This document shows positions 1 to 45,374 of a stretch of DNA of 64,000 nucleotides, piece after piece. Position 1 is the stretch's first letter; each line of letters starts with the position of its first letter. This DNA comes from an uncultured Candidatus Saccharibacteria bacterium (GTDB lineage Bacteria; Patescibacteriota; Saccharimonadia; CAZHVB01). The notes under the pieces were generated by a model. The model was not told where the DNA came from and ran no database searches. It saw only the letters and a list, made by a program, of their open reading frames with translations. The stretch spans positions 169,733 through 233,732 of the forward strand of contig CAZRIY010000001.1 of NCBI GenBank assembly GCA_964600295.1. Direction: 5' to 3'. The translations under genes were made by a program, and so were the position numbers.

Positions 1-236
1 GTAGCGAATAGTGCTACCACCAAACCAATAATGGCATAAAGGATGGTATCTTTAGCCCGCTTAGCGCGCTCTGGGTTACCGGCAGAAGTAATATATTGAA
101 TCCCCGCAATAATGATAAAAATTACCGCCACCGCACCGACTATTAGAAAGATGGTGCTAAAGATGGAGCCCAAGGCGTTGCTATCGGCTTTGACGTCGGG
201 CAGATCCAAGCCGCCGGCCTTAAAGTCTGGGTTCAT
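1..236 (-). CDS. T4SS pilin-like small membrane protein (VirB2/TrbC-like), partial: the C-terminus lies beyond the window start
   Basis: Reverse-strand translation from the ATG at 234..236 gives MNPDFKAGGLDLPDVKADSNALGSIFSTIFLIVGAVAVIFIIIAGIQYITSAGNPERAKRAKDTILYAIIGLVVALFA... It has two hydrophobic helices separated by the ITSAGNPE motif shared with the next two genes. It starts 3 nt after the stop of the upstream paralog. Not in the ORF track because it is truncated by the window edge. Confidence 0.6.
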   Translation of the reverse strand, partial: MNPDFKAGGLDLPDVKADSNALGSIFSTIFLIVGAVAVIFIIIAGIQYITSAGNPERAKRAKDTILYAIIGLVVALFA

Positions 237-239
237 AAC

Positions 240-614
240 CTAAAATAGCCCCGCAATATAGCCCACTATTAGACTGGCTACAATCGCTATAATCAAACCT
301 ATAACGGCGTTGGTAAGAATGCTTTGGGCTTGTTTGGTGCGGTCTGGATTACCGGAGCTGGTGATGTAAGTTATGCCAGCGTAAATTATTAGAATTACCG
401 CCAGTAGCCCGGCCAAAGCCAGAGCCATGCGTGTTACATTTGCCACTACAGTCCAGATCTGAATTAACTCAAAATGTATAATCTGGCAATCAAATTTGTC
501 GCCGACTTTCTCTGCTTGAAAATGGAGACCCTTACCCCAATGCGGAAAACCGAAGAACACATTTTCCGCGCACTCTTTATTGGCATGATCGGCAAACCAG
601 TTCAACCAATTCAT
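240..614 (-). CDS. T4SS pilin-like small membrane protein (VirB2/TrbC-like), paralog 2
   Basis: The C-terminal 62 aa (MALALAGLLAVILIIYAGITYITSSGNPDRTKQAQSILTNAVIGLIIAIVASLIVGYIAGLF) has the same two-helix hairpin plus (I/Y)ITS(A/S)GNP(E/D) motif as the neighbours. The 60-aa N-terminal extension is non-hydrophobic, so the true start may be the internal Met (about 429). It overlaps the upstream paralog by 4 nt. Confidence 0.55.
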   Translation of the reverse strand: MNWLNWFADHANKECAENVFFGFPHWGKGLHFQAEKVGDKFDCQIIHFELIQIWTVVANVTRMALALAGLLAVILIIYAGITYITSSGNPDRTKQAQSILTNAVIGLIIAIVASLIVGYIAGLF

Positions 615-1009
615 AACAACCCGCCGGGGATTAAGAAATTCAGTATGGCCGCCATAAATATGAATAATAGCAGAGCAATTATGGCGTTGGTTAGCATCTT
701 CTTAGCACCAGCAATAGCTTCGGGATTGCCGGCACTTGTGATGTATCTAATGCCACTAATTACAATCATCAGCACAATTACAATTCCAACTCCGGCGGAT
801 AAGAAACGAATGATACCGCCCAACATATCAAAAATGGGATTAACAATGTCTCCGGCGTCCCCCTTGCAACCCACCGGTATGGCAATCTTTACTTTTTTTG
901 CGCCCTTACCGCATTCTTCTGCGAAGACAAGGGAGGGTATAAAAATCAAACCTGATATTAAAATACTAACAGCTGCTGCAAAGATTTTTGGTTTCGTTAG
1001 CTTTAACAT
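611..1009 (-). CDS. T4SS pilin-like protein (VirB2/TrbC-like) with N-terminal signal peptide, paralog 3
   Basis: Signal peptide MLKLTKPKIFAAAVSILISGLIFIPSLVFA. The mature part has two hydrophobic helices flanking RYITSAGNPEAIAGAKK. This architecture is typical of conjugative pilins. Confidence 0.6.
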   Translation of the reverse strand: MLKLTKPKIFAAAVSILISGLIFIPSLVFAEECGKGAKKVKIAIPVGCKGDAGDIVNPIFDMLGGIIRFLSAGVGIVIVLMIVISGIRYITSAGNPEAIAGAKKMLTNAIIALLLFIFMAAILNFLIPGGLL

Positions 1010-1128
1010 TTCTATCTTTCACTCATGCTTACCCAGATTGTACTAGGGGTAAAACGGTATTACAATATAGAGTGTCGCGCCACATAAAATGTTGATTTTG
1101 TATCAAGATTGTGGTATAAAAGGAGATT

Positions 1129-1842
1129 ATGGCAATGGTTAAAGTAGAAGAACAATTCAGACCTTCACATGTTGAACGAGGGGGTAAAGTTCTAGAGCTA
1201 AAGCGCAGCCCTTCTCGCACTAAACGGTTAATAGCCATTGGATCAATTCCAGTTACACTAGCCGGCGGCATCGTTGGCTATCTTGCAACTCGTGGTGAAG
1301 ATGCACCATCCCGCTCCCGTTCTACTGCTGCGGGCAATTCGCAAGAGCGACCAAGCGTGTATCAGCCTGAAGCAGAATTAATAGACCCCATTGGAGATAC
1401 AACAACAGTTGAACCGGTGATAGTGGATCCGGCGCGCGATGCCATCATTCAGGCTGAACAAGCCAAAGATTCCTTGGTTTCAAACTGGCAGAACATCGTT
1501 AATAGTGACACTTACGAAGAGGCTTTCACCTACGCCGAGCATTTTTTTACAGCCCGCGTCATTAATACAGAGCCGGAATATGTCAGCAGTTTCATAGAAG
1601 ATGCCATGGCATTTGGTGGCACCAACCAACACCGTGAATTCAAGTGGGTAGTTATGCCGGAATTGACAGATTTTAACGGCAACCGTAGTCGAACTCTAGG
1701 TATTCAGGAATACGAGCTTAGGGACGTTGTAGAGCTTCAAGGCGATCTCGTCCAATATACGCTCTGGTTAGATAAGGTAAGTGGTGAATTGCTGATAGAT
1801 GGGCTCGAAAATCTGGAGCAGGGCGTTATAGAATCTTCCTAG
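1129..1842 (+). CDS. Bitopic membrane protein, hypothetical; VirB8/TcpC-like topology
   Basis: 237 aa with a single TM helix (LIAIGSIPVTLAGGIVGYLA) after a ~30-aa cytoplasmic tail, then a ~180-aa extracytoplasmic domain. It is the first gene of the plus-strand T4SS operon, divergent from the pilin genes. The VirB8-like assignment is inference from size and topology only. Confidence 0.35.
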   Translation: MAMVKVEEQFRPSHVERGGKVLELKRSPSRTKRLIAIGSIPVTLAGGIVGYLATRGEDAPSRSRSTAAGNSQERPSVYQPEAELIDPIGDTTTVEPVIVDPARDAIIQAEQAKDSLVSNWQNIVNSDTYEEAFTYAEHFFTARVINTEPEYVSSFIEDAMAFGGTNQHREFKWVVMPELTDFNGNRSRTLGIQEYELRDVVELQGDLVQYTLWLDKVSGELLIDGLENLEQGVIESS

Positions 1843-1914
1843 CTTTAAATAAGTCATTGTAGCAATCGCCACATATAGGGGAAATTCCCTAAAAGCTCAT
1901 GCTAAAATAAGCCC

Positions 1915-4566
1915 ATGCGCTCCCTCTTATGGAAAGGCCTGCTTTCGCTTATACTGATTGCGTCATTGTTGCCATCCGGAGTCTGGGCTCAACCGCCGGG
2001 GGTTGCCATCGGAAAATGGATCGACCGTGCCACCATTGAGGTAACTTCAGGCGAATTAGTTGGCGAGAAGTTTTATGACCCCCTTATAGATACGGTATCG
2101 GTTTTCGTTGAGCACCCTTCCTCTGATGCAGATGACTGCACGAGCTTATTCTTTTTTGGCTATCGACGAAACGACTTTGCGGGGGGGGACTGGGAAATCG
2201 CCGAGTCGCCGACATCTAACGAAAGTGATTACAGTACCGGCGCCGCCTACATCGTTATCAACAAACTCAACCAAGCCGGCACGCAGTGTATCTGGCCTGA
2301 AATCACGGCCGACTTAGCCAATGATACTGATAACGCAGAAGCAAAATTAGACGATCTACCTGAAGGTGAGGTTAAACAGCTTATCGGCCTAACTGACCCT
2401 GACAACAGCCGCATATTTTATTACTACGCTAATGAAAAGCATGATGAGTTAATACGAGTCGATGATTTTGACTACTACGTGCAGGTCGATACCAACGCAG
2501 CCGGAAACAAAGTGTTCGAAAAGACTGATGACGCAGACGAATGCTCCGATAGGATCGAGATAACGGGCAGCGGTGGCCCCACTTACGACGATGCGGAGCA
2601 CAGAATAAGAGTACTGGATGCTACATGCAAGGTAGAAAGTTCGGCTGCAATCCGGATAGGAGAAGACGAGGAGCGTTCCAAGAACCCTGTTGTAGGCCCC
2701 CTAACCAAGGATGATCTAGACAGCCGTAAGCAAAAAGGTGGGCCAGCCGGTGCAACGGATGTAGAGTGCGATGCCGGGCCACTGTCCTGGATTGTTTGTA
2801 CAGTTATTGACGCTATTAAAAGTGCGGCCGACTGGTTTTTGAAGGAAGTTATTACACCCTTCCTTAAGGTTAGTCCGCTGCAAGCAGAAAGCGGCAATAC
2901 CGTTTTTGAGAGTTGGAAAGGCATCCGCAACTTGGCCAATATACTGCTGATACCGGTCTTTTTTGTGCTTATTTTTGCCCAAGCCCTGTCCTTAAACATC
3001 GATGCCTATACTATTAAGAAAATGCTGCCAAAGTTGGTGGCGGCAGTCATTCTAATACAATTTTCCTTCTATGCCGTAGCTTTCTTAGTGGATATCTTCA
3101 ACGTACTGGGCAATGGCATTGGAGATTTGCTAACCAGTGCCGTCAAGGGTGAACAGCTAGGCGGCAGTGGGGGTACACAGTTTAAATTTGGGGAAGGTGA
3201 AAGCGTGGCAGCTGGATTAGCTATTACTTTAGGGCTCTTACTTACTGTGCCGTTTGCCATAGCTATTTTTGGATTCTTGCTAATACTAATGCTGGCCTTG
3301 TTGGCGGTGGTAGTCACCCTTATCTTTAGGCAGGTACTAATTGTCTTTCTGGCAATCTTGGCCCCCGTCGCGTTTGTGGCCTGGGTATTACCCAATACCC
3401 AGGGCTTATTTAAGCTTTGGTGGGATAGCCTTCTGAAAGCGCTGGCAATGTACCCATTGATCGTAATGTTGTTTGCGGCCGCCGTCATTGGATCATCTCT
3501 AATTAGCGGCGGGGCCATCAGTGGTCCTAAGACCGGAGCACTCAGGAACAACTTAGAAACCATTGCCGCAATCATACTCCTAATCATTCCCTTCGCTTTA
3601 ATCCCCCTTACTTTTCGGCTCGGCGGTACTGCCATGGCTGGTATAGCTAGTGGCGTCCAAAATTTTCGTGGGCGTCTGCCTGGTGGAGGTGGCGGCGGGC
3701 GGCGTGGCGGAGGGCCAGGCGGACCAGGTGGCCAACCCCGCCCCGGTACTTTTCGAGATCGTATGCAACAATATCGTAGAGCAACAGCGGCTGGCGTAAA
3801 TAGGACTGGACGAATACCTTTAATAGGCGGTGTGGCTAGAGTAATGTCAAGACAGGGTGTAGGCATAGGTAGGGGGGCAAGGACAGGAGCACAAATGGAA
3901 CTACAAAGACAAGTTGGCGAAAACGTTAAAGAAATCGAAAACCTGAGTCATGATCAGCGAAATTTACTAGCTTTTGGATCTCGGGGGGCAGCACTTGCTG
4001 CAATAGATAGGCAGGAAACCGACAGAACTATGGATGCGGCGCAGGCGGCCAGAGCACGACAAAACGTAGATCAAAATTGGGGATCGGTGAGTGCGCTGGC
4101 CAGAAATCCATCTATGCATCTTGCTGCCTTCTCCAAGCTGGCGGAGGACGGGCTGGCTACACATGAACAATTTGCAAGTGTTAGGGATGTCACGCGGGAC
4201 AACCCACAGGTTAGGGGTGCTGTATTAGGAAAAGCGGCTTTCGATATGTACAGTAAGGGCTCTACTAACTTTCTGCGATGGTCTGATGGTGAAGGTGCAG
4301 CTAATGATACAGTGCAAAGCTTCGTTGGCAGGATGGGGGCACAACAGTTTGCTGAGGCGAAGGATCTTGGAGATCCAGTAATACACGGTGTCCTGATTGA
4401 TAGGGCGCGTCAGAACCCAGAGACTGCTAATGCCCTGCGCCATGCCTTAACGCTAACAGCTTCGCCCAATACTCGTGAAGATATAAGATTGATTCTGGAA
4501 TCGGCCGGGCGCTCGACTGAACCCATCGCCACTGCTACTACTCGTGGTACCCCGGACGAAACTTAA
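1915..4566 (+). CDS. VirB6/TrbL-like (ConG-like) polytopic T4SS membrane protein with large N- and C-terminal extramembrane domains
   Basis: 883 aa. Signal peptide, then a ~300-aa extracellular domain, about 7 TM helices (residues ~330-600) and a Gly/Pro-rich linker (GGGGGRRGGGPGGPGGQPRPG, ~3670-3740). A ~270-aa C-terminal domain follows. Size and topology resemble ConG/TcpH-type VirB6 homologs of Gram-positive conjugation systems. Confidence 0.55.
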   Translation: MRSLLWKGLLSLILIASLLPSGVWAQPPGVAIGKWIDRATIEVTSGELVGEKFYDPLIDTVSVFVEHPSSDADDCTSLFFFGYRRNDFAGGDWEIAESPTSNESDYSTGAAYIVINKLNQAGTQCIWPEITADLANDTDNAEAKLDDLPEGEVKQLIGLTDPDNSRIFYYYANEKHDELIRVDDFDYYVQVDTNAAGNKVFEKTDDADECSDRIEITGSGGPTYDDAEHRIRVLDATCKVESSAAIRIGEDEERSKNPVVGPLTKDDLDSRKQKGGPAGATDVECDAGPLSWIVCTVIDAIKSAADWFLKEVITPFLKVSPLQAESGNTVFESWKGIRNLANILLIPVFFVLIFAQALSLNIDAYTIKKMLPKLVAAVILIQFSFYAVAFLVDIFNVLGNGIGDLLTSAVKGEQLGGSGGTQFKFGEGESVAAGLAITLGLLLTVPFAIAIFGFLLILMLALLAVVVTLIFRQVLIVFLAILAPVAFVAWVLPNTQGLFKLWWDSLLKALAMYPLIVMLFAAAVIGSSLISGGAISGPKTGALRNNLETIAAIILLIIPFALIPLTFRLGGTAMAGIASGVQNFRGRLPGGGGGGRRGGGPGGPGGQPRPGTFRDRMQQYRRATAAGVNRTGRIPLIGGVARVMSRQGVGIGRGARTGAQMELQRQVGENVKEIENLSHDQRNLLAFGSRGAALAAIDRQETDRTMDAAQAARARQNVDQNWGSVSALARNPSMHLAAFSKLAEDGLATHEQFASVRDVTRDNPQVRGAVLGKAAFDMYSKGSTNFLRWSDGEGAANDTVQSFVGRMGAQQFAEAKDLGDPVIHGVLIDRARQNPETANALRHALTLTASPNTREDIRLILESAGRSTEPIATATTRGTPDET

Positions 4567-4574
4567 GAAGAAGT

Positions 4575-5417
4575 TTGATGGCTACCTATAAAATTCCCCA
4601 AAACGTCGAAGCCGAAGATAAACTACTTGGCCCTTTTACCTTTAAGCAGTTCATCTTCCTGCTTATGGCGGCTTTTGCGGCGTTGGTAACCTGGTTGCTG
4701 TGGCGGATTAATCCTTGGGTCAGTTCACTGTCTATACCTTTTATACTGCTTTTCGGATTCTTGGGCATCTACCACCGTGAGGACCAACCGGTAGAGGTCT
4801 ACCTAGTAGCAGCGCTAAATTACTTGTTTAAGCCGAGGCGGCGAAAGTGGAGCCAAGAAGGCTTGGTAGAAACTGTCCGCCTGACCGCGCCCAAAGTTAA
4901 GCTAAGGCCCGAACTTAAAAGGCTCAGTTCCGAGCGGGGACAGCTAAAGACCCTGGCTAACATCATGGACACTCGGGGCTGGGCTATTAAGCGGCCGGAA
5001 CTCACCGAACCGCTGGCCAACCAGTATTTTTCGGCTGATGATCGACTGGCTATGCCTGATCTACCTTCATCTGCCACTGAACCGCTGGAGGTGCATGCCT
5101 ATGATGATCCGCTTGACCCACTTCAGTATGGCGACGCCGATAAGTTTTCTGATCTGGCCCAAACCAGCTCCAAGCAGGCCAAAGCCCAGGCCATAGCCAA
5201 AATGGAGGCTGCTATCAATACCAGACAACCCACAGACGCACCAGCGGCAGTGGTCAATAGCACCGACCAAGTAGAGCGGGTAAGATCTGACACTGCCAAA
5301 AACTTAGCTATGAACGATGTTTTACGGGTCAGCGAGATCGCTAAACAGGCCCAAAAAATTCCCAAGGGCGAGCTACCAAAAGGCATAGAGATAGATCTGC
5401 CAAATCCTGGCGAATAG
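4575..5417 (+). CDS. VirB3/PrgI-like T4SS membrane protein with extended C-terminal domain
   Basis: N-terminus PQNVEAEDKLLGPFTFKQFIFLLMAAFAALVTWLLW plus a second TM (LSIPFILLFGFLGIY). This two-TM hairpin is typical of VirB3/PrgI/TcpE proteins that precede VirB4. Confidence 0.45.
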   Translation: MMATYKIPQNVEAEDKLLGPFTFKQFIFLLMAAFAALVTWLLWRINPWVSSLSIPFILLFGFLGIYHREDQPVEVYLVAALNYLFKPRRRKWSQEGLVETVRLTAPKVKLRPELKRLSSERGQLKTLANIMDTRGWAIKRPELTEPLANQYFSADDRLAMPDLPSSATEPLEVHAYDDPLDPLQYGDADKFSDLAQTSSKQAKAQAIAKMEAAINTRQPTDAPAAVVNSTDQVERVRSDTAKNLAMNDVLRVSEIAKQAQKIPKGELPKGIEIDLPNPGE

Positions 5418-5485
5418 AGCAAATCTACCGCTTATTGACATAAGCGGTATCTGTTATACTTGGGGCAGATTTAGAAGGATAATTA

Positions 5486-6403
5486 ATGGCGCTTCAAGAA
5501 AAACAGCCCCAACAGTCTAATCCTGTACCCACTGCGGCCGGTGGACTCCTCCCCGTCCAGCCAACCTCGGTTAATCAAACTAACCCGGCGGTATCCCCGC
5601 CAATTCAGCCCAACCCCGCACCGCAAGCCAGCCCTAGCCTGGCTGAACCAACCAAGCTGCCGAAAGCCAAAAAAACCAAGACCAAAGGGGTTTCGACCCA
5701 AGGCGCCTTGTTGATTTCGGAGATTCGCGACGGCCTGGTGATCATGAAGGATGGCAGCTTGCGAGCGGTAGTAATGTGCCAGTCAATCAATTTTGACCTG
5801 ATGAGTCCGGCCGAACGCGAGGCCGTGGAGTTTACTTACCAAGGTTTTTTGAACGCACTTTATTTCCCGATTCAAATCTTCATCCGCTCCCAGCGGGTGG
5901 ACCTCAACAGCTACATTGACAAGCTGGAAGCAATTCATACCGGTCAAGAGAACATTCTACTATCGCTGTTGATGGAGGATTACATTGCCTATGTACGCTA
6001 CTTAGTGGAGGCTGCTAATGTTATGGACAAGCAGTTTTATGTGGTAGTACCCTACTATCCGCCGCTGACCTTACAGAAAGGGGGAATTTCCACGGGTATC
6101 CACCGGTTTACTTCCTTCTTGCGCCCCAAAACCGGCCCGATTGTGATCAACCAGGCTGATTACGCCCGTTTCAAAGCCGAGCTGACCCAGCGGGTACAGG
6201 CGGTTTTATCGGGATTGAATCAAATGGGTACCCAGGCCGTGCCCCTAAATACTCAGGAACTGATCGAGCTTTACTACACAGTCTATAATCCCCAGACGGC
6301 ACTGAGTCAACGCTTGACCGATGTTGATGATTTGGAAGCACAGATGGTGGAAAAAGGTCAGGGGCAGGCACCGCCGGTTTTGCACGGAGATAGTCAACTA
6401 TGA
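5486..6403 (+). CDS. VirB4/TrbE-family T4SS ATPase, N-terminal segment (ends at the in-frame TGA 6401..6403)
   Basis: After a Pro-rich low-complexity N-terminus comes DGLVIMKDGSLRAVVMCQSINFDLMSPAEREAVEFTYQGFLNALYFPIQIFIRSQRVD, resembling the CagE/TrbE/VirB4 N-terminal domain. It is in the same frame as the next ORF, separated only by TGA. Confidence 0.6.
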   Translation: MALQEKQPQQSNPVPTAAGGLLPVQPTSVNQTNPAVSPPIQPNPAPQASPSLAEPTKLPKAKKTKTKGVSTQGALLISEIRDGLVIMKDGSLRAVVMCQSINFDLMSPAEREAVEFTYQGFLNALYFPIQIFIRSQRVDLNSYIDKLEAIHTGQENILLSLLMEDYIAYVRYLVEAANVMDKQFYVVVPYYPPLTLQKGGISTGIHRFTSFLRPKTGPIVINQADYARFKAELTQRVQAVLSGLNQMGTQAVPLNTQELIELYYTVYNPQTALSQRLTDVDDLEAQMVEKGQGQAPPVLHGDSQL

Positions 6404-6406
6404 GGG

Positions 6407-8422
6407 GTGGGGATGGCCTTACTGGGTAGATTCAAGAAGACCGCTGAAGTCGGGCTGGCCGAGCAACAGCGGCTGCGCGAAGCCGCCCAGGTTGAGCAAG
6501 AGTTTCGCGAAGGCATCACAACCTTGCGCGATTTTATCGCGCCTTCCTCGATTGAATTCAATTCCGATTACTTCCGCTTGGGAAACCGCTACGCTGCCAC
6601 TTTCTATGTCTACGGCTACCCTCGGCAGCTTTATACTGGCTGGTTATCTCCGATTATCAACGTTGATGAAACTATCGACCTGAGCATTTTCATTTACCCG
6701 GTAGAAAGCCGAGTGGTGCTAGAGAATTTGCGCAAAAAAGTTGGCCAGATGGAAGCCAGCATTTCCATCCTCCAAGAAAAAGGCCGGGTACGCGATCCTG
6801 GGCTAGATGCTTCAATTACCGATGCCGAGGAGCTGCGCGATAAACTCCAAGTTGGGGAAGAGCGCTTCTTTCGCTTTGGACTTTACCTAACGTTATATGC
6901 CGATACTCGCGAAGAGCTTCAAGCCGCCCAGCGCAAAATTGAGGGGATCTTTGGTCAAGAACTTGTCTATACCAAGATTGCCACCTTGCAGCTAGAACAA
7001 GGTTTTAACTCGACCGTGCCCCAAGGTATGGACCAGCTAGAAATCCGCCGCAATTTCAGTACGGGGGCGTTATCCACTAGCTTTCCTTTCACTTCGGCCG
7101 ACCTATCCCAAGAGAACGGCATTCTTTATGGCATCAACATGCACAACAATGGCTTGGTGATTTTCGATCGCTTTAGTTTGGAAAACGCCAACATGGTGGT
7201 GTTTGCCAAATCGGGTGCTGGTAAATCTTTTACGGTTAAGCTTGAGGCTTTGCGCTCACTAATGATGGGCACCCAAGTTATCGTCATAGATCCGGAGAAC
7301 GAATATCAGCGACTGTGCGAAGCTGTCGGGGGCAGCTATGTTCGGCTGAGCCTAAACTCCAAAACCTACATCAACCCCTTTGAACTGCCCCATGTACTGG
7401 ACGAGGAAGAAGCTGATAACGCCTTGCGGGCCAACTTAATTACCCTACACGGTTTATTGCGGTTGATGCTGGGGGCCCAGCAAGCCGGCGCCGCCTCCCA
7501 AATTTACGTTGGCCTTACACCCGAGGAAGAAGCTGATCTAGATCTGGCTTTAATCAATACTTACGGCCAAAAGGGCATTACCAATGATGCTTTGACGCAT
7601 GGTGCCACGCCACCGACCATCAAGGATCTTTACGAAACCCTGGTTAGCATGGAGGGCAATGGTCCTTCCCTGGCCCAACGGCTACGCAAGTTTACTACCG
7701 GCACTTTTTCTGGCATTTTTTCCAACCAATCCAGCGTTAGCTTAGACAATAACTTTATTGTTTTTAATATCCGCGATTTGGAAGAAGAACTGCGGCCGGT
7801 GGCTATGTACATTATTCTCAACCACGTTTGGAACCGAGTGAAGAGCGAAATGCGCCGACGTTACCTGATTGTCGATGAAGGCTGGCAGTTGATGCGTTAT
7901 GAGGATTCAGCCAACTTTTTGTTCTCAGTGGCCAAGCGAGCCCGCAAGTACGAACTGGGGTTAACCACAATTTCTCAGGACGTAGAAGATTTTCTGTCCT
8001 CGCGGATGGGACGGGCGATTGTGGCCAATTCCAGCTTGCAGATGTTGCTCAAGCAAGCGCCCTCGGCCGTCGATTTGGTGGCAGACACCTTTAAGTTAAC
8101 CAGCGAGGAAAAAAAGCGGCTATCCCAATTTCCGGTTGGACAGGGTCTATTTTTTGCCGGCTCCAACCATATCCATATGCGGATTGACGCCTCGCCCACT
8201 GAGACCCAGCTGATTACTACTGATCCCAAACAGTTGCGGGTGCTTCAAGCCATGGCCGAAAGTGGCAACACTGCTGCCGCTGCCACCTCATTGACTACTG
8301 AGCCCGTCGACCAAGAATCATCGACCGAGCCATCACGGGTTACCCCACCCGCATCATCGCAAATTGCGTCCCCGGGATCAGCTACTGATAAATTAATGCC
8401 CACCCAAACCCCAGAGGTTTAG
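6407..8422 (+). CDS. VirB4/TrbE-family T4SS ATPase, C-terminal segment containing the ATPase domain
   Basis: Walker A VVFAKSGAGKSFTVK; Walker B RRRYLIVDEGWQLM; motifs YGYPRQLYTGWLSPII and LTTISQDVEDF are typical of VirB4. The track start GTG 6407 is in frame with the upstream ORF. ATG 6413 has a GAGGGGTGGGG Shine-Dalgarno-like run 7 nt upstream. Confidence 0.8.
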   Translation: MGMALLGRFKKTAEVGLAEQQRLREAAQVEQEFREGITTLRDFIAPSSIEFNSDYFRLGNRYAATFYVYGYPRQLYTGWLSPIINVDETIDLSIFIYPVESRVVLENLRKKVGQMEASISILQEKGRVRDPGLDASITDAEELRDKLQVGEERFFRFGLYLTLYADTREELQAAQRKIEGIFGQELVYTKIATLQLEQGFNSTVPQGMDQLEIRRNFSTGALSTSFPFTSADLSQENGILYGINMHNNGLVIFDRFSLENANMVVFAKSGAGKSFTVKLEALRSLMMGTQVIVIDPENEYQRLCEAVGGSYVRLSLNSKTYINPFELPHVLDEEEADNALRANLITLHGLLRLMLGAQQAGAASQIYVGLTPEEEADLDLALINTYGQKGITNDALTHGATPPTIKDLYETLVSMEGNGPSLAQRLRKFTTGTFSGIFSNQSSVSLDNNFIVFNIRDLEEELRPVAMYIILNHVWNRVKSEMRRRYLIVDEGWQLMRYEDSANFLFSVAKRARKYELGLTTISQDVEDFLSSRMGRAIVANSSLQMLLKQAPSAVDLVADTFKLTSEEKKRLSQFPVGQGLFFAGSNHIHMRIDASPTETQLITTDPKQLRVLQAMAESGNTAAAATSLTTEPVDQESSTEPSRVTPPASSQIASPGSATDKLMPTQTPEV

Positions 8423-8437
8423 CCTCCCAGCATCAAA

Positions 8438-11400
8438 ATGGCCAAAGCCACTCCCGAAGAGCAAACCGAAAAAGACCAGTTAGACCGCACTTATAGGGAG
8501 TCGTTGAGCCAAGAAGATGTCGAGAGTGGGGTCAAACAAGCTGAATCTCACGCCAACCAGAGTTTTTATAACAATGGAGGCCAACCAAAAGGCTCCCAGC
8601 CATTTGGTTGGGTTGGCCGCCATCGCAAAAAACTTGTCACTGGTGGGATATTGGGAGTGCTAACTGGTGGTGGCCTGATTGGGCTTTTTTCATTTCTGGC
8701 TCCCTTAAAATTGGATTTCTTGGGCAAGAATATCGAGCAGACTCAACTGGACCGTCTCGAGTACACCGTAAATGGTCGTAGCCAGCGTTTTATGTACCAC
8801 CTGATGATGGCGGAAATAGCCGGCAATAATGGGGGCGATCCTAGTAACAATCGTTACTTCCGCGCTAAGGGCTGGTATCTAAGCGGCAATCCCCTGACTC
8901 AGTGGTATAAGGATATCCGCACCGACAAGTTTTTTAATGTGATGGAGCAGAAATACGGAGTCATCTTCGCTGCCGAAAGTGGAAATGCTCGCGGCCACCT
9001 GCGCGCCATCACCACTATTGATATGCCAGAATCCAAGGTCGATAGCCTCAGGCAATTATTTAAAGATATTGATACACCGAATGGCATAGATGTTGCCAAA
9101 CTGAACGAATTTGAGGGTGCTGTAGTTAATGAATTTGATAATGACCGTGATGCACGCCGAATGATCAGAAGTTTTATCAAGGATGACTCCCATGCCTGGC
9201 AGGTTCTCAAGCGGCGGCATTTGCGGCGATGGGCAGGAGAGCGACTGGGCATCCGTCGTTGGCGTTTCTTCGAGGGCACCCGCGATAAAACCGGTAAATC
9301 AGTTCGCACGACTTGGAGTAAGCTCACCGGTAACACCATGACTGGCAAAATCATCGGCTGTATTTTTTCGTTCGCTCTTTGTCCGGTTGATTCCAATGAC
9401 CTAAACGATAATGACAACAAGGTTGAAAATGGTAACGACCCAAATACCCAGCGATCGGTAGACGATACAGAAACCGATATCGACGACGGACAAGAGCGTG
9501 CCAAAGGACAGCTTGGCAAAGCCGATGAACGCTCGAGGATTCAAAAGTTAATTTCTAGAAAACTGATAATTCTAAGGGGTGTGAATATCCTCGACTGGCT
9601 GAGAACTTTCATAGCTATTGATGATAATATTTCTAGTCGTAAATTGACCAAAATGGTAGCCATTTCTCGAGCCGCAGAATACGCAACGGCCTACATGACT
9701 TTCGTGACGTTAACAGATCATCTCAAGGAAGGCGAAACCGTCACTGGCGAAGAAGTAAATGCAGCTATGCAGATGTTTCAATGTAGCGAATTTAGCGAGG
9801 CATATCAGCATATGATGGCCAAGCAAAATAGTGGTTCTAAAACGGCCAATATCGGTGCAGTGTATGCCCAGCAGAAGCAGCGCACCACCAAAGAATGCCC
9901 CTACTATGAAGAGGTAACTGACGAGCTTAAAGTTAACGGCCATGGTAGCAACGCCGCTAAAATTGAGAAATGGTACAACGATACCATCGGTCCGGTTATT
10001 GGTGAGATCGTGGATGCTGTTCGTTTTCTTGTGGAAAATCCGGTAAGCGCGGCCATCTTAAGCGTACTCGACTCCATATTCAACTTCTTACTACAGGGAT
10101 TGTTGGTAATCGTTAACTTTATATGGGACGAATCTGAGGAAGCTATCAAGAAACTGCTCAACAAGCTGGGCGAGGAAGTTATCTCTGGGCTGGGTGGGGC
10201 ACCACAATGCACCGCCAATGAATCGGGCGGCCGTAAGGTCGGCTGCGCTATTGGCGGCGCAGCAGTTACCCAAGAACAGTATCTGGCCTCCATTGGCGGC
10301 ATGAACCTGACCGATGATCAAGTTAATGAAGTGAAGCAAAAGGTAGCCTTTGCCAAGCAGCAAGATAGAGCCGCTACCAGCTGGTGGCATAGGCTGGCTT
10401 CAACCGAAGATCCCAATTCCCTGCTGGCCAGAACCGCAATGCGCTTGCCCAGCAATACTTCCCAGCTAGCCAGCGAATTTAGCAATCTGGCTAGCAGCTT
10501 CACCCCAACCAGCCGACTAACCGCCTCGGGCCAAGCACTAGCTGCTACAATCAGCGATTCGGCGTTAGCGGTGCCAGACCCGGATGAAAATCTTTTCGGC
10601 GTCGAATATAAAGGCTTTCTCAATAAAACCATCGAGAAGTCGCTACCCTATGACGGTAAAGCTAAAGACAAAGCAGGCGAACAGGCGCTGCTGGACGCCA
10701 TTGCTGATGGCCGCATTAAGGCAGAGCCACCTGCCGGTAATTGTGAAGATGAAATGGCTGCCCACACCGCACAATTGGTAGGTGATGACGACATTAAGAC
10801 CGATGATGATGGGCCAACCATGATGAGTGTATGTAAACTTGATACGGCTATTAGTGAAGCCATGAAATCATTCTTTACCGAGGAAGATGATGGTGGCATT
10901 GGAACTTCAACAAGCATTGATGGCTCTGGAGAGACGGGTGTAAATGGACTCGAGTGCCCAGATAAATTACAGGAAAACCCAACCCATCCGGGCTACTATA
11001 AAATGCCCGAAGCGCCAAGTGGTGAGTACGTTATTTACTCTGTTGATGCCCGTAGATATGGAAGCAAAGAGTTAGTTTGCTCAATTTATACGGTAGCTCT
11101 GGCCTATAAGGATAAATACGGTAATAAATCAACTGTTAACGTCGGTGACCTTAACGGCGGATATCCGCACGCCAGCCACTATAAAGGCATTGCCGTTGAT
11201 ATAGATGCGCACGGCCAAATCTGTGCGGCTGACCATACCCATCCTACGCCAGGTGATGGATCGGGACTTTGCGGACCATATAACGCAGAAGCCACCGTCG
11301 ACCTTGGCAAAATGTGGATAGACACCGGTATTTTGCAGGATATATGGTGGTGCGAGAAACCAGGAGACGGATCAACCGAAGCCATTCGCATATATGGCGA

Positions 11401-11506
11401 ACAAAAGGGAAAACCGGTAAATATTAAGTGCCTGTCGGGCCATGATAACCATTTCCACGTTAATATCCAGGAGAAGTATGCCTTGCCTGGTTCATGGACA
11501 CCTTAG
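8438..11506 (+). CDS. Large membrane-anchored T4SS-associated protein with C-terminal LAS-family (peptidase M15/VanY-like) zinc-peptidase signature
   Basis: 1022 aa with one N-terminal TM (LVTGGILGVLTGGGLIGLFSFLAPL). An acidic low-complexity segment (DSNDLNDNDNKVENGNDPNTQRSVDDTETDIDDGQERAKG) sits at ~9380-9500, and a hydrophobic segment at ~residue 530. The C-terminal YPHASHYKGIAVDIDAHG (~11161..11215) matches the SxHxxGxAxD motif, and GHDNHFHV (~11438..11461) is a His-cluster. Confidence 0.5.
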   Translation: MAKATPEEQTEKDQLDRTYRESLSQEDVESGVKQAESHANQSFYNNGGQPKGSQPFGWVGRHRKKLVTGGILGVLTGGGLIGLFSFLAPLKLDFLGKNIEQTQLDRLEYTVNGRSQRFMYHLMMAEIAGNNGGDPSNNRYFRAKGWYLSGNPLTQWYKDIRTDKFFNVMEQKYGVIFAAESGNARGHLRAITTIDMPESKVDSLRQLFKDIDTPNGIDVAKLNEFEGAVVNEFDNDRDARRMIRSFIKDDSHAWQVLKRRHLRRWAGERLGIRRWRFFEGTRDKTGKSVRTTWSKLTGNTMTGKIIGCIFSFALCPVDSNDLNDNDNKVENGNDPNTQRSVDDTETDIDDGQERAKGQLGKADERSRIQKLISRKLIILRGVNILDWLRTFIAIDDNISSRKLTKMVAISRAAEYATAYMTFVTLTDHLKEGETVTGEEVNAAMQMFQCSEFSEAYQHMMAKQNSGSKTANIGAVYAQQKQRTTKECPYYEEVTDELKVNGHGSNAAKIEKWYNDTIGPVIGEIVDAVRFLVENPVSAAILSVLDSIFNFLLQGLLVIVNFIWDESEEAIKKLLNKLGEEVISGLGGAPQCTANESGGRKVGCAIGGAAVTQEQYLASIGGMNLTDDQVNEVKQKVAFAKQQDRAATSWWHRLASTEDPNSLLARTAMRLPSNTSQLASEFSNLASSFTPTSRLTASGQALAATISDSALAVPDPDENLFGVEYKGFLNKTIEKSLPYDGKAKDKAGEQALLDAIADGRIKAEPPAGNCEDEMAAHTAQLVGDDDIKTDDDGPTMMSVCKLDTAISEAMKSFFTEEDDGGIGTSTSIDGSGETGVNGLECPDKLQENPTHPGYYKMPEAPSGEYVIYSVDARRYGSKELVCSIYTVALAYKDKYGNKSTVNVGDLNGGYPHASHYKGIAVDIDAHGQICAADHTHPTPGDGSGLCGPYNAEATVDLGKMWIDTGILQDIWWCEKPGDGSTEAIRIYGEQKGKPVNIKCLSGHDNHFHVNIQEKYALPGSWTP

Positions 11507-11507
11507 G

Positions 11508-12719
11508 ATGAATTCCAAGACACTCGTGCAGCTAGGTCTCATGACCCTATTGTTGGGCTTACCCATGAAGTTGTTGGCAATCAGTTCCCCGGATCGTCAC
11601 TCGGTTATTTACGACACTGTTTATTACGATCCCACAGACGTTAGCCAAGAATGCAGTGGCGGCACGGACCAGCTATCCGAAGATACCGTTCCCCAACCTT
11701 ACAATGATTTGTTTGAAGAGGCAGCCGCTAAGTTTAAAACCGACGTGGCCTTGTTGGCTGCCATTTTTTGGGTAGAACACCACGGCATAGGGGCAAAATG
11801 GGACCCCAAGAGTTGGCCCGATCATAAGGGGCCTTGGGCTTCGTCGACCGTTGGAGCTTCTGGACCATTTCAATTCATGCCAGATACGTGGGGTTACCCA
11901 CCGGATTATACGCCCGGTTATGCCATTGATGGTGATAAGGATGGCGATAGAGAAATCCAGGACCTTACAGATTCAGCCTATAGTGCCGCAAACTATCTTT
12001 CCGCAAATGGCGGAAAAGTTGGCGCCGAGGTAGGCAACCCTGATCTTGATGTCCCCCAAAAACCTTCATTTAGCAACGCCATTTGGCATTACAATCATGA
12101 TCCTGCCTACGTCAAAACTGTTCTTGAAGCGCGTGAAGGAATTCTAAAGGGCGGAGGCGCGTCCGCGAGCGGTAGTAGCGGAACCTGTGCCACCGGCAAC
12201 TGGATTTGGCCGATCGCTAAGAAGGACTATCTGGGACTTTCAACCTGCTGGAATACATCCCGCATTCTCAATGGCAATAAGTACCACCACGGCGGCCTTG
12301 ATATATCGGCGGGCCGCGGTGTTGATGCTTTAGCGGCTGATGGGGGTACTATTGAAGAAGTGAATCTAGATGCGAGCAATGGCAACGGTATATATGTGGT
12401 GATAAAACATGGAGGTAAGTTCTGGTCGGTTTACAAACATTTGCTCGAAGCTAAGGTTAAGAAAGGGGATCAAGTTAACCAGGGTGATGTAATTGGTGCT
12501 GTTGATAGTACTGGCACCAGTACGGGCGATCACCTTCATTTCAATATCCAAGATCGAGGTGGAGTATCGGGCTCGGTAGAGGACGGAGGCACTCTGAACC
12601 CCTTAGACTACTTGCCCGAGGATGGACGCAACCTTGAAACTGGAAATCCCGACCTTGGTAAATGTATACCGGGCGACAAGGGTCAAACTGGTAATGGCAT
12701 TCAGGTAATTAATACATAG
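11508..12719 (+). CDS. CwlT-like bifunctional cell-wall hydrolase: lytic transglycosylase (SLT) + M23 (LytM) peptidase, secreted
   Basis: Signal peptide MNSKTLVQLGLMTLLLGLPMKLLA; start chosen at ATG 11508, 1 nt after the upstream stop (ORF track 11442 would overlap). SLT motifs AAIFWVEHHG, GASGPFQFMPDTWG and YSAANYLS. M23 motifs HHGGLDISAG and GDHLHFNIQ. Confidence 0.8.
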   Translation: MNSKTLVQLGLMTLLLGLPMKLLAISSPDRHSVIYDTVYYDPTDVSQECSGGTDQLSEDTVPQPYNDLFEEAAAKFKTDVALLAAIFWVEHHGIGAKWDPKSWPDHKGPWASSTVGASGPFQFMPDTWGYPPDYTPGYAIDGDKDGDREIQDLTDSAYSAANYLSANGGKVGAEVGNPDLDVPQKPSFSNAIWHYNHDPAYVKTVLEAREGILKGGGASASGSSGTCATGNWIWPIAKKDYLGLSTCWNTSRILNGNKYHHGGLDISAGRGVDALAADGGTIEEVNLDASNGNGIYVVIKHGGKFWSVYKHLLEAKVKKGDQVNQGDVIGAVDSTGTSTGDHLHFNIQDRGGVSGSVEDGGTLNPLDYLPEDGRNLETGNPDLGKCIPGDKGQTGNGIQVINT

Positions 12720-12727
12720 GAATATAG

Positions 12728-14152
12728 ATGCAAACAAGAACCAAGTTATTTTTACTAGCCATGTCAGCCTTGATACTTCTAATTGTTGGCTGGCAGTTGT
12801 TATCCACGGGTAAGGTCGAGGTCACCACTTCTCCTGGCGTCAGCAGTTCCTTTTCGATTCGGGATGAAACCGGTAAGACTATAGAAACAAAAAAAGGTAA
12901 AAGAATTGCTGAACGTTTGCGGCCTGGTGAGTACTCGGTAACAGCAGAGCACGACAAAGGCGCCACCAAACAATCGTTCACTATCAAGGCTCGCGATACC
13001 CTCAGTTTGGTCCTGAAGCTGGAGGAATTAAAAACGCCGGTTCTAATAACTGATCGGCCAGCAGTGGATATCCAGCTGGGAAGTGGACTGTTGTTTGTTG
13101 ATCCCACACTTGATAGGCTATTTCAACTCAAAGAAGGTAGCACCATACCCCAACCCCTCTTCGACACCGTGGACGCTCAGCGCATCGAATGGCTGGGCCA
13201 AGACAGCGGTTTGATCCAAACCACCGAGCGCAATGGCTACTATTTTGATGGCTCAATGATTCGTGACATTGGGCTGGTATCCGTTGAAGAAGAGGATCAA
13301 GTGATAATTAACGCCGTAAGTGCTGACCCGGGCTCGCGAAGCTTTGTTTACAGCTCTGCCAAAGAACTATTTATTAGCCGCAATCTTGCACCGCGCCAGC
13401 ATCTGCTTACCGTTGATAAGGAAAAACCATCATTGGCGTTAAAGGGTGGTAACTTGGCATTTTTCTACTACCCTGAAGGCTTCCCCGAATACACTACGCC
13501 AGAACCAGCCTTTGTATTTGATCTGACTAGCAGCACCAAGACTGAGATTGTTTCAGATCAATTAATATTTGATATTCATTGGTCGGCCAGCGGGGATAAA
13601 TTGATTTATGACACCCCAGAAAATCTATATATATACGACTATCAAGCCAGGCGCGTAATAAACCGCATTTCAAAAAATCTAAATGTTGCCGTTCCGGTTC
13701 TGTGGCTTAATGACGCGGACTTTTTGTATGGCGACGAGGGTGGAATTTGGCGTTTCGAATTAAATAGTTCGCAGGCTATCAAACTAGCAAATGCCAGTGG
13801 TGCGAATGAGGGGTTTGATATTGCCAGACGATTAGATTCAGACGAAATTTTCTTTAGTAATGGTGATTCCGCGAGTCCGGGTATTTATAAATTACTACTC
13901 GCCGGAGATATCCCTGAAAATACGAGGATCCTAGCTAAAATCCTCCCCTCCAGTACCGTGCAGTTTGAAATTAAGTATTCGGCCCTTGCCGAACCAGCTA
14001 CTGTACTAATCCAGACCTTTGTGGATCGGCGGCCTGGCACTACCCCGGCCGAATATCTGGCCAAGGCCGCAGAATACAAAAAGGCGGCCCTGGATTTTCT
14101 TCAGAGCCACGGCGTAGACACCTCAAAGATTAGAATCCATTATCTGGAATAG
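12728..14152 (+). CDS. Secreted/anchored hypothetical protein, possibly beta-propeller (TolB-like)
   Basis: 474 aa with N-terminal TM/signal (LFLLAMSALILLIVGWQLL). Last gene of the plus-strand T4SS block. No catalytic motif recognised. Confidence 0.4.
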   Translation: MQTRTKLFLLAMSALILLIVGWQLLSTGKVEVTTSPGVSSSFSIRDETGKTIETKKGKRIAERLRPGEYSVTAEHDKGATKQSFTIKARDTLSLVLKLEELKTPVLITDRPAVDIQLGSGLLFVDPTLDRLFQLKEGSTIPQPLFDTVDAQRIEWLGQDSGLIQTTERNGYYFDGSMIRDIGLVSVEEEDQVIINAVSADPGSRSFVYSSAKELFISRNLAPRQHLLTVDKEKPSLALKGGNLAFFYYPEGFPEYTTPEPAFVFDLTSSTKTEIVSDQLIFDIHWSASGDKLIYDTPENLYIYDYQARRVINRISKNLNVAVPVLWLNDADFLYGDEGGIWRFELNSSQAIKLANASGANEGFDIARRLDSDEIFFSNGDSASPGIYKLLLAGDIPENTRILAKILPSSTVQFEIKYSALAEPATVLIQTFVDRRPGTTPAEYLAKAAEYKKAALDFLQSHGVDTSKIRIHYLE

Positions 14153-14276: not shown

Positions 14277-14555
14277 CTATTCTAGTGTAGTTATCTGAAT
14301 ATGTAGTCTATGTATCGGCCGCGTAGAGGTTTGGACGCATTTGACGATTAGATCTTGCTGGCGCAGCCGCAGCTCGGAAGCTACTGCTGCGCTAGGAGTT
14401 ATAACCTTGAGTACGCCCTCATTGAGACTTTTGGCGCGGCATTGACCCGGGAATTCTTCTTCTAAAATCGATTGAATAATTTTGAGAGCATCGGCTCGTT
14501 CCAAATCGAGCTGTTGGGCCTTACGGGCTAAATAGAGTTTGGCATTCTCTAACAC
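14277..14555 (-). CDS. DUF721-family protein (recF-downstream small protein)
   Basis: 92 aa, located immediately downstream of recF as in the canonical dnaA-dnaN-recF-DUF721-gyrB arrangement. Confidence 0.55.
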   Translation of the reverse strand: MLENAKLYLARKAQQLDLERADALKIIQSILEEEFPGQCRAKSLNEGVLKVITPSAAVASELRLRQQDLIVKCVQTSTRPIHRLHIQITTLE

Positions 14556-14595: not shown

Positions 14596-15645
14596 CTAGA
14601 GTTTGATCAATTGGTGCGGCTTTGGGAGTTGCTTGGTTAACCCCCGCTGATCGGTAGTGGTAATAATGGTTTGGACTTTATCCAATTTAGCCAACAGGCG
14701 CAGCCGGCGGGTCTGATCCAGCTCGCTGAAGACATCGTCCAGCAGCAACATCGGCTGCTTGTCCGTGTGCCGTTTTAACCATTGCAATTGGGCCAGTTTA
14801 AGGGCCAGCACCAGTGTGCGCACTTCGCCGCGGCTGGCCACCACAGCCGCCGGCTTATGACCTAGCGCCACCGCCACTTCATCGCGGTGGGGACCCAAGC
14901 TGGTAGCGCCAAAACGGATATCTCGTTGCAATTTTTGGTTTAGACCTTTGAGTAGTTGCTCGCTATATTCACCCTCCCCCAGACCGGTCTGGTAGGTAAG
15001 ATGCAGGGCTGGCTTGGCACCGGCCAGCTGCCGGTAAAGGCTGGGCAGGCGGCGGTTAACGTAGGCGATAAACTTAGCACGTAAATCCACTAGCTGGGCG
15101 GCTAGCTCTACCAAGGTGACGTCCCAGGCAAATACCTGGTCTTCAATGGCCGCTCGCTGTTTTTGGCGCAACAAGTGGTTGCGCTGATTGACCACGCGGC
15201 GGTAAGCCAGCAAATTTTGCCAGTACTGGGGGTGGCTCTGGATCAAGGTTTGGTTGAGCCAGCGCCGCCGCTCTTCCGGGGCGCCGTTGATAATTTTTAG
15301 GCTGTCGGGCTCAAACAACACCACCGGCAAGCTGCCTAGATAGGCTTCGGGCTTGATGTTGGTTTGGTTAACTTTTAGCCGTTTGCGACCACCAGTCGGA
15401 TAAACCAGCTCAATTGTGGTTTTGGCGGCGGCGCCCTCTAGTCGGTACCAATCGGCCGTGTGCCGGACCAGGTCGCGGTCCCGCGCCCGCCAGGACTTGG
15501 TAGTGGCCAAAACATAAAGCGATTCCAATAGATTGGTTTTGCCGGCGCCGTTGGCTCCTACCACTAGCGTGACACCAGGCGAAAAGGTAAAGACTTGTTG
15601 GCTATAAGAGCGAAAGTTGGCCAGTTTCAGGCTATCAATCGGCAT
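14596..15645 (-). CDS. recF: DNA replication and repair protein RecF
   Basis: N-terminus MPIDSLKLANFRSYSQQVFTFSPGVTLVVGANGAGKTNLLESL (Walker A) and the C-terminal ABC/SMC signature region. Position downstream of dnaN. Confidence 0.9.
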   Translation of the reverse strand: MPIDSLKLANFRSYSQQVFTFSPGVTLVVGANGAGKTNLLESLYVLATTKSWRARDRDLVRHTADWYRLEGAAAKTTIELVYPTGGRKRLKVNQTNIKPEAYLGSLPVVLFEPDSLKIINGAPEERRRWLNQTLIQSHPQYWQNLLAYRRVVNQRNHLLRQKQRAAIEDQVFAWDVTLVELAAQLVDLRAKFIAYVNRRLPSLYRQLAGAKPALHLTYQTGLGEGEYSEQLLKGLNQKLQRDIRFGATSLGPHRDEVAVALGHKPAAVVASRGEVRTLVLALKLAQLQWLKRHTDKQPMLLLDDVFSELDQTRRLRLLAKLDKVQTIITTTDQRGLTKQLPKPHQLIKL

Positions 15646-18578: not shown

Positions 18579-18716
18579 ATGCCCAAACGAACTTTCCAAC
18601 CCAAAACCCGCCATAAGAAGCGCGTCCACGGCTTTTTTAAACGCATGAGCACGCGGGCCGGTCGCAACCTACTGGCACGTCGCCGCAACAAAGGCCGCCA
18701 GCGTCTGTCTCACTAA
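18579..18716 (+). CDS. rpmH: 50S ribosomal protein L34
   Basis: Translation [45 protein letters not shown] (45 aa), a canonical L34. Below the ORF-track length cutoff. Confidence 0.9.
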
Positions 18717-44613: not shown

Positions 44614-44756
44614 TCCGTTATTCTACCACGTAGCTAGAGTTGTATTTTCGGGTTTTCTGCTTGCCTGTCCTCCGGAAGGCGGGCCGGCAGGCAGGTGTTC
44701 TTTCTCAGTTCCAGACCATTGACTGTTCGCCTTTTGTACGCTATCATTGCGGCAGA

Positions 44757-45374
44757 ATGAAACAAAGCCTCACCAAAAAGCAAAAATTCCTGCTCGATTT
44801 TATTCGTAAATTTACCGCCGATAATGGCTATCCCCCCAGTTTCCGCGAGATTATGGAGGGCTTGAATTATAGTTCTGTAGCCACAGTTGCTCAACACGTT
44901 GATAACCTAGTAGCCAAGGGTTATTTGCACAAGCGCGATAATGAAGCTCGCTCAATTCAATTAGTGGAGGCCGATGTGGAAATGAGTGGCGGCAGTGATT
45001 TACCGGTGCTGGGGCTGATTGCCGCCGGCGAACCCATCACGGTTATGGATGAAACCAAAGAAACCCTGATGGTACCGCCCTTTATGATCAAGAGTGATAA
45101 TTCTTATGTACTGCGGGTAAAAGGCAACAGCATGATAGACGACGGTATTCTAGATAAAGATTACATTGTGGTACGCGAGAACAAAGCTCCCAAAAACGGT
45201 GAAGTGGTGGTGGCTATGCTCAATGGCTACTCGGCCACTCTCAAGCGCTTCTATAAAGAAGGCAGTAAAATTCGGCTGCAGCCCGCTAATTCAAGCATGA
45301 AGCCGATAATTTTAGACGAAAACGATTTTTTGGAAATCCAAGGTATCGTTACCGGAGTTATCCGCAGCTTCTAA
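44757..45374 (+). CDS. lexA: LexA repressor (S24 peptidase)
   Basis: N-terminal wHTH (YPPSFREIMEGLNYSSVATVAQHVDNLVAKGYL), cleavage site and catalytic VKGNSMIDDGI (Ser) and K (SATLKRF). Start at the internal ATG 44757; the track ORF 44640 has a spurious N-terminal extension. Confidence 0.85.
   Translation: MKQSLTKKQKFLLDFIRKFTADNGYPPSFREIMEGLNYSSVATVAQHVDNLVAKGYLHKRDNEARSIQLVEADVEMSGGSDLPVLGLIAAGEPITVMDETKETLMVPPFMIKSDNSYVLRVKGNSMIDDGILDKDYIVVRENKAPKNGEVVVAMLNGYSATLKRFYKEGSKIRLQPANSSMKPIILDENDFLEIQGIVTGVIRSF

Follow-up and report, generated by a model that had tools for sequence, protein, structure and literature searches.

Does a conjugation-type secretion locus that abuts a chromosomal replication origin behave as a mobile element or as part of the core genome, and what might it do if it does not transfer itself? 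This question is raised by a type IV secretion system (T4SS) gene cluster at positions 1 to 14152 of a 64,000-nt stretch (the window) of contig CAZRIY010000001.1 (GCA_964600295.1, positions 169,733 to 233,732, forward strand) from an uncultured Candidatus Saccharibacteria bacterium. Judged from its sequence and that of its relatives, the cluster is very probably a Patescibacteria-clade T4SS, related to the MPF_FATA class, of a Saccharimonadales bacterium, and a vertically inherited core-genome locus rather than a mobile element. T4SS loci next to the chromosomal origin (oriC) were already described between 2023 and 2025 and shown to be essential in a cultivated relative; the window copy is an ordinary one. 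It adds one more well-preserved example, with comparative detail to guide experiments, of a system that is probably central to the life of Saccharibacteria, which are ultra-small, on their bacterial hosts. An initial annotation of the same DNA had proposed a chromosomally fixed, monoderm-type T4SS beside the origin of an epibiont, serving something other than self-transfer; conserved synteny, the absence of mobilization genes, and the literature all agree with that proposal, and every gene that it listed, including that of an exported 474-aa protein, is in place.

Genomic setting and conservation of the locus

Scanning a single genome for each species yielded 80 related loci, nearly all labeled Saccharibacteria or Saccharimonadales, with VirB4 identities of 65 to 76%. 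Across them, the gene order virB6-prgI-trsD-virB4 is essentially universal. On the origin side, the cluster abuts DUF721-recF-dnaN-dnaA, as initially annotated; Pfam matches identify these genes, and the origin-side position is backed by DnaA boxes, three perfect copies of which occur in the window, two of them flanking dnaA at 16906 and 18406. In the window, dnaA lies 8.6 kb past the virB4 stop codon. Among the 52 loci informative for this border (those with at least 9.5 kb downstream of virB4), dnaN/dnaA follow virB4 at a distance of 5.4 to 8.8 kb in 46, compared with 7.2 kb in the window.

The opposite border was read on Logan contig L001, which is 100% identical to window positions 1 to 5327 and extends 3350 bp further upstream. 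Past the pilin genes, it carries hsp20, then a gene with a phosphoribosyltransferase (PRTase) domain, then a response regulator gene (L001:6692-8429; 0.1 to 1.8 kb past the pilin array and 1.4 to 3.1 kb upstream of window position 1). Pilins, hsp20, and a ComFC-like PRTase gene recur at this border in the six relatives examined, and the PRTase gene of relatives also has the double zinc ribbon of the ComFC architecture. The comparison of synteny with other genomes that the initial annotation had suggested thus shows the whole block, hsp20-pilins-virB6-prgI-trsD-virB4...recF-dnaN-dnaA, to be conserved across Saccharimonadales together with both housekeeping borders.

Identities to the window copy were compared for VirB4 and housekeeping proteins in the 37 loci having both genes. 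Median identities are 70% for VirB4, 47% for TrsD, 41% for PrgI, and 30% for VirB6, and 51% for DnaA, 44% for DnaN, and 37% for RecF. Because VirB4 outranks DnaA in conservation and the housekeeping borders are fixed, the locus behaves like core genome and not like an integrative and conjugative element (ICE). The GC content of prgI, trsD, and virB4, overall and at third codon positions (GC3), equals that of the housekeeping genes, with no compositional break; the GC3 of the accessory genes is slightly lower (0.42 to 0.49 versus 0.54 to 0.65 in core and housekeeping genes).

When every substantial open reading frame (ORF) of the 64-kb window was scanned with Pfam, no relaxase, VirD4/TcpA-type coupling protein, or integrase family was matched, and the precomputed Pfam labels of L001 included no mobilization genes in the 3.35 kb upstream. 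The lack of such genes that had been noted for the 14 kb therefore extends to the window and this flank; a relaxase, VirD4, or integrase gene immediately upstream of the window, named beforehand as the finding that would make the cluster an ordinary ICE, was looked for on L001 and was not found there. No direct repeats of at least 12 nt link the two cluster borders, a megablast search of the 14 kb against plasmids gave no match, and the window's single tRNA gene (tRNA-Asn, 45458-45532) is 31 kb away from the cluster.

A gene-for-gene equivalent of the cluster lies beside dnaA-dnaN-recF in Candidatus Southlakia epibionticum ML1 (SEML1_0001 to 0021). Wang et al. (2023) found its T4SS (SEML1_0006 to 0019) to resemble Gram-positive conjugative systems supplemented with an essential pilin series, to have no recognizable coupling or relaxase proteins, and, by transposon sequencing, to be needed for epibiotic growth, SEML1_0004 to 0011 and 0013 to 0019 being essential (PMC10633639). 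Read from dnaA (SEML1_0001), that locus continues with recF and the genes of two exported proteins, a hydrolase of the lysozyme type, and a 1113-aa protein; VirB4, a TrsD-like protein, and PrgI come next, then two VirB6-like proteins with a 278-aa protein encoded between them, and finally the six pilins, Hsp20, and a ComF-like PRTase (PMC10633639), so that the hsp20/ComF-like border is kept there too (SEML1_0020 and 0021). The two loci differ in several respects. S. epibionticum has two VirB6-like genes (SEML1_0011 and 0013) and the window one; its hydrolase consists of two lysozyme-like domains and a cysteine peptidase, whereas that of the window combines SLT_2 with M23; SEML1_0004 and 0005 are replaced by the single 474-aa protein; the window has dciA between the cluster and recF, unlike S. 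epibionticum; and the bitopic proteins of the two loci show no sequence relation.

The window also fits the phylum-wide survey of Quinonero-Coronel et al. (2025), who defined a monophyletic patescibacterial VirB4 clade, sister to MPF_FATA, in which TrsD is the commonest partner, VirB2 arrays comprise 2 to 11 genes and are abundant in Saccharimonadia, and PrgI-type VirB3, VirB6, and M23-containing VirB1 substitutes occur (PMC12102498). Relaxases are few and absent from most of those clusters, and dnaA, dnaN, rnpA, and rpmH lie nearby (PMC12102498). A 2025 review restates this picture (PMC12857230). Compared with these Patescibacteria-clade systems, the window is a further instance with nothing materially different. 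Its features are collected in Table 1.

Table 1. Genes of the T4SS locus and of its origin-side border in the window
Feature	Coordinates	Strand	Evidence and remarks
VirB2-like T4SS pilin, third of six	1..236	-	78 N-terminal codons inside the window, the rest beyond the window start
VirB2-like T4SS pilin, second of six, 124 aa	240..614	-	PF18895 T4SS_pilin, E 1.8e-11; NF045849, E 5.6e-7
VirB2-like T4SS pilin, first of six, 132 aa	611..1009	-	Signal peptide; PF18895, E 4.5e-9
Bitopic ORFan, 237 aa	1129..1842	+	Transmembrane segment at about residues 33-52; no family match
Extended VirB6/TrbL-like polytopic membrane protein, 883 aa	1915..4566	+	TrbL, E 0.005 (sub-threshold)
PrgI/VirB3-like membrane protein, 280 aa	4575..5417	+	PF12666 PrgI, E 6.5e-13, 49.5 bits (cutoff 27)
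TrsD/TraD-like protein, 305 aa	5486..6403	+	NF041427 TrsD, E 3e-6
VirB4 ATPase, CD1110 family, 669 aa	6413..8422	+	NF045971, E 3.2e-112, 376 bits (cutoff 325)
Bitopic protein, 1022 aa: scaffold of about 830 aa plus putative C-terminal LAS-type module (residues 831-1022)	8438..11506	+	Weak Peptidase_M74, E 0.008 (below threshold)
Exported peptidoglycan hydrolase, SLT_2 + M23, VirB1/TrsG/CwlT analog	11508..12719	+	PF13406, E 3e-9; PF01551, E 2.4e-22
Exported or membrane-anchored protein, 474 aa, last gene of the block	12728..14152	+	N-terminal hydrophobic segment
dciA (DUF721)	14277-14555	-	Pfam
recF	14596-15645	-	Pfam
dnaN	15663-16766	-	Pfam
dnaA	16993-18402	-	Pfam
rpmH, followed by rnpA, yidC, and a KH/R3H jag-like gene	18579-18716 (rpmH)	+	Pfam

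VirB4, TrsD, and the membrane components

The VirB4 ATPase of the initial annotation is well founded: its match to NF045971 lies above the cutoff, both Walker motifs (A, AKSGAGKS; B, LIVDE) are intact, and it also matches P-loop_TraG (E 2.5e-25). It starts at ATG 6413, with GTG 6407 as an alternative start. Its closest homologs are Saccharimonadales proteins (65 to 82% identity), and all but one of the named matches among the best 120 VirB4 homologs are from Saccharimonadales or Saccharibacteria.

The gene directly 5' of virB4, which had been overlooked initially, encodes a TrsD/TraD-like protein; trsD occupies this place in 80 of the 81 virB4-bearing loci. Since VirB4 aligns to positions 183 to 744 alone of the 752-position CD1110 model, the N-domain is missing from it and would be supplied by TrsD as a separate polypeptide. 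TrsD appears, from this alignment, to be the detached N-terminal domain of VirB4. In the window, trsD and virB4 share a reading frame and are parted by a single TGA (6401-6403), followed by GAGG and ATG 6413; the GAGG, a Shine-Dalgarno sequence, overlaps the stop codon of trsD. We considered whether the TGA could mark a pseudogene or be a readthrough or recoded stop codon and ruled this out, because the two genes are separate ORFs in all 79 relatives compared (mostly overlapping by 1 to 4 nt; only 3 share a frame) and because GAGG precedes ATG 6413. Despite its nonsense-split look, the trsD-virB4 division is ancestral.

A comparable succession of genes is found in the pGO1, pSK41, and pIP501 systems (trsC-trsD-trsE-trsF-trsG), in which a VirB3-like protein, TrsD, VirB4, a further protein, and a cell wall hydrolase follow one another as they do in the window. 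Those systems are plasmid-borne, possess a relaxase, a type IV coupling protein (T4CP; TrsK/TraJ), and oriT, and lack VirB2 pilins, whereas the window locus is chromosomal, has no mobilization genes, and includes a pilin array and an upstream virB6. The initial annotation had likened the cluster to ICEBs1 and Tn916, which belong to MPF_FA. What these share with the window is the minimal monoderm channel, made up of VirB4, VirB3- and VirB6-like proteins, and a two-domain wall hydrolase, and perhaps a VirB8-like protein as well. They are nevertheless not the closest systems: they have neither TrsD nor pilins, the peptidase of their hydrolase is NlpC/P60 and not M23, their gene order is different (in the window, VirB6 is encoded upstream of VirB3 and VirB4), and they are mobile, with integrase, relaxase, and coupling protein. 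Within MPF_FATA, TrsD is confined to the pGO1 subclass, and MPF_FA is a separate monoderm class, the Orf17 profile being listed apart from MPF_FATA (PMC12102498).

The VirB3/PrgI-like assignment likewise holds, with a PF12666 match above the cutoff. Between prgI and trsD, a gap of 68 nt contains a perfect palindrome with a 10-bp stem (5426-5449, TACCGCTTAT-TGAC-ATAAGCGGTA) that might act in termination or attenuation or bind a protein. A promoter and terminator scan returned sites in numbers no higher than those obtained with shuffled sequence.

The VirB6/ConG-like polytopic protein is composed of an exported N-domain, a transmembrane core (approximately residues 330 to 600), a Gly/Arg-rich linker, and a C-terminal domain. 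While its own TrbL match is sub-threshold, the assignment is strengthened by its orthologs, because 15 of the 36 aligned from related loci match TrbL independently (best E 3.2e-6). The conserved core columns of this alignment correspond to residues 285 to 560. A comparison of the family profile with PDB returned low-complexity noise alone. Inside virB6, an antisense ORF for a proline-rich 265-aa product (3069-3866, minus strand; GGGGGRRGGGPGG...) mirrors the Gly/Arg-rich linker and is almost certainly not a gene.

The 237-aa protein encoded upstream of virB6 found itself alone when queried against collections of 5.8e9 proteins and 1.84e9 representative proteins, and family profiles gave no match; a PHROGs scan of the unknown proteins yielded nothing of use. 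Its slot is filled in 45 relatives by bitopic proteins, mostly of 230 to 425 aa, that form many mutually unrelated sequence clusters, and profile-profile comparison detected no relation between them and the 237-aa protein. As far as sequences can tell, this points to extreme divergence at that position. The bitopic topology is compatible with VirB8/TraM/PrgL. By gene order, the protein is the positional counterpart of the NTF2-like, VirB8/TraM-like SEML1_0012 of S. epibionticum, and a VirB8-like identity is plausible by position alone. SEML1_0012 has 278 aa, is predicted to be NTF2-like (ECOD e4ec6), and is non-essential (PMC10633639, supplement).

Pilins, putative wall-active enzymes, and the modular scaffold

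Three divergent tandem pilin genes had been noted on the minus strand. PF18895 matches support their identity, but the array totals six PF18895 genes, three of which lie upstream of the window start and were read on L001. Pairwise identities among the six range from 29 to 58%. The pilin cut by the window start is identical to an 89-aa pilin on L001 that has a PF18895 match, and NF045849, which is matched by the second pilin, describes a pilin-like conjugal transfer protein.

At the other end of the block, the predicted hydrolase comprises a lytic transglycosylase domain and an M23 endopeptidase domain. Both domains are as initially annotated, but the start is most likely 11508, which gives a signal-peptide-like N terminus, and not 11442. 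The 474-aa protein that follows has weak positional homologs in 11 loci, and its slot in S. epibionticum is taken by the essential exported proteins SEML1_0004 and SEML1_0005 (PMC10633639).

Between VirB4 and the hydrolase is encoded the 1022-aa protein, whose family sits directly 3' of virB4 in ~70 loci, as found by iterated profile search. The conserved scaffold of the family spans ~800 aa, corresponding to the first ~830 residues of the window copy, and what follows it varies. Among 36 scaffold members, the C-terminal modules are M23 (12 members), VanY/LAS (6), endonuclease/exonuclease/phosphatase (Exo_endo_phos; 3), GH43 (1), Amidase_2 (1), and BSP peptidase (1). All mapped modules start after about residue 840, and shorter scaffold members have none (examples of members are L014:11917-14946, L018:11217-15416, and L062:7778-11620). 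The post-virB4 protein is a conserved scaffold with an enzyme module that is swapped between lineages, and this feature is possibly new; a literature search, which was not exhaustive, found no published description of such C-terminal module swapping.

The module of the window copy has no relative among the related loci and is an orphan LAS-like domain. It displays the LAS zinc-ligand motifs H-x6-D (HYKGIAVD) and H-x-H (HFH). The ortholog SEML1_0007 (1113 aa) is essential and has a Hedgehog/DD-peptidase domain at residues 951 to 1105 (PMC10633639), a comparison that indirectly supports a LAS-peptidase reading of the window C terminus. That the module is aimed at the host envelope rather than at the epibiont's own wall, is matched to host envelope chemistry, and acts as a host-range determinant is an idea that we regard as unlikely; under it, arabinan-containing walls might be the target of a GH43 module, for instance. 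If the idea were true, the post-virB4 scaffold protein would set the host range of the secretion system. Of the six relatives that lack dnaN/dnaA within 10 kb of virB4, five (L028, L042, L047, L060, and L066) carry a second paralog of the scaffold protein ~6 to 8 kb after virB4; in them, the cluster is expanded and not relocated.

Possible activities of the system and the remainder of the window

VirB4, TrsD, PrgI, and the VirB6 core are invariant parts of the locus. Hypervariability is seen in the exported proteins and the bitopic protein, in the pilins, and in the enzyme module at the C terminus of the scaffold. In the mechanism that we propose, VirB4 would dock on PrgI/VirB3 and the extended VirB6 in a single membrane, TrsD providing the VirB4 N-domain in trans, while peptidoglycan would be opened by the SLT+M23 hydrolase and by the 1022-aa scaffold protein through its LAS-type module. 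Polymerized by the machine, the six divergent VirB2-like pilins would form a tube touching the host envelope or passing through it. Since the locus encodes no relaxase or coupling protein and VirB4 is its sole ATPase, we propose an exchange that is independent of a coupling protein: the essential activity is probably VirB4-driven pilus assembly together with coupling-protein-independent exchange of macromolecules with the host, and not relaxase-led DNA export.

Several points weigh against our interpretation of the locus. Pilus formation, the substrate, and the direction of transport are inferred, for the window as for any Saccharibacterium. The view is limited to 64 kb plus 3.35 kb, and a VirD4-like gene could lie elsewhere in the genome; most patescibacterial T4CP homologs are indeed far from virB4 (PMC12102498). 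The placement of VirB4 in the Patescibacteria clade is suggested by its best matches. Any fold assigned to the 237-aa protein, the 474-aa protein, or the C-terminal module of the 1022-aa protein is putative. For the 237-aa protein, no alignment could be built because no sequence relative was found, and its single-sequence AlphaFold2 model was unusable (predicted local distance difference test [pLDDT] 31), as was a model of the C-terminal module of the 1022-aa protein (pLDDT 37). The 474-aa protein has no family, PDB, or homolog-database match, and PDB sequence searches gave nothing meaningful for any of the three full-length proteins (237, 474, and 1022 aa) or for the 1022-aa C-terminal module.

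A possible, though doubtful, alternative is that the system translocates effectors or other proteins into the host bacterium or onto its surface, perhaps after Sec export as in Bordetella Ptl, to subvert it. The majority of non-conjugative T4SSs are exporters (PMC12857230), and Wang et al. suggested that protein export is possible (PMC10633639). The hypervariable exported proteins (the 237-aa and 474-aa proteins and the pilins) evolve fast, as host-interaction factors would, although surface structures under pressure from host or phage are equally expected to do so. Moreover, the locus contains no coupling protein or recognizable effector, and no effector is known for patescibacterial T4SSs.

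It is also tempting to think of a machine for the uptake of DNA or other nucleic acid, similar to Helicobacter ComB or archaeal Ced, that imports host nucleic acid into a nucleotide-auxotrophic epibiont. An ATPase complement of VirB4 alone, with neither T4CP nor relaxase in the locus, would suit such a machine, as would the ComFC-like gene two genes past the pilin array in the window genome and in relatives, and the endonuclease/exonuclease/phosphatase module on some orthologs of the 1022-aa protein. A 2026 preprint on a cultivated representative of the Minisyncoccota/Patescibacteriota reports feeding on host RNA and possible T4SS pili at the interface. However, deletion of comEC in S. epibionticum abolishes competence and not viability (PMC12857230), which means that ComEC-dependent transformation is not what makes the T4SS essential; the ComF-like SEML1_0021 is non-essential (PMC10633639); and the CedB/CedD matches of VirB4 are far below the cutoffs and reflect generic P-loop homology. 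We consider nucleic acid uptake unlikely.

Least probable by a wide measure is a decayed or domesticated ICE whose mobilization module was recently lost or which is mobilized in trans: homology of the components to monoderm conjugation machinery and the slightly lower GC3 of the accessory genes would agree with it, but we rejected an ICE remnant on the grounds of housekeeping borders that are conserved on both sides in relatives whose DnaA is only ~51% identical, the absence of an integrase and of att-like repeats from the DNA scanned, the nearest tRNA gene being at 45458, the overall composition, a VirB4 better conserved than DnaA, and the ancient acquisition of a monophyletic clade (PMC12102498).

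Beyond the T4SS locus and the origin, the window contains a long region for polysaccharide synthesis and export (20765-44613) with GT1, GT2, and GT4 transferases and a Wzm/Wzt-type ABC (ATP-binding cassette) exporter, as well as UDP-GlcNAc 2-epimerase, FnlA/CapD-like, and dTDP-rhamnose genes, a Wzy_C ligase-like gene, and a gene for a DUF7657/DUF7654 protein. The GC content of the segment at ~28 to 38 kb is clearly lower (0.39 to 0.43 versus ~0.50), and the segment may be a glycan cassette exchanged by horizontal transfer. Between the glycan genes, a 795-aa S8 subtilase is encoded on the minus strand (38303-40690), which may be a surface protease. The window also holds transporter genes and the gene of an Asn-tRNA synthetase (class II, D/K/N-type), and lexA (LexA DNA-binding domain and S24 peptidase) directly precedes the tRNA-Asn gene, both lying within 44640-45532.

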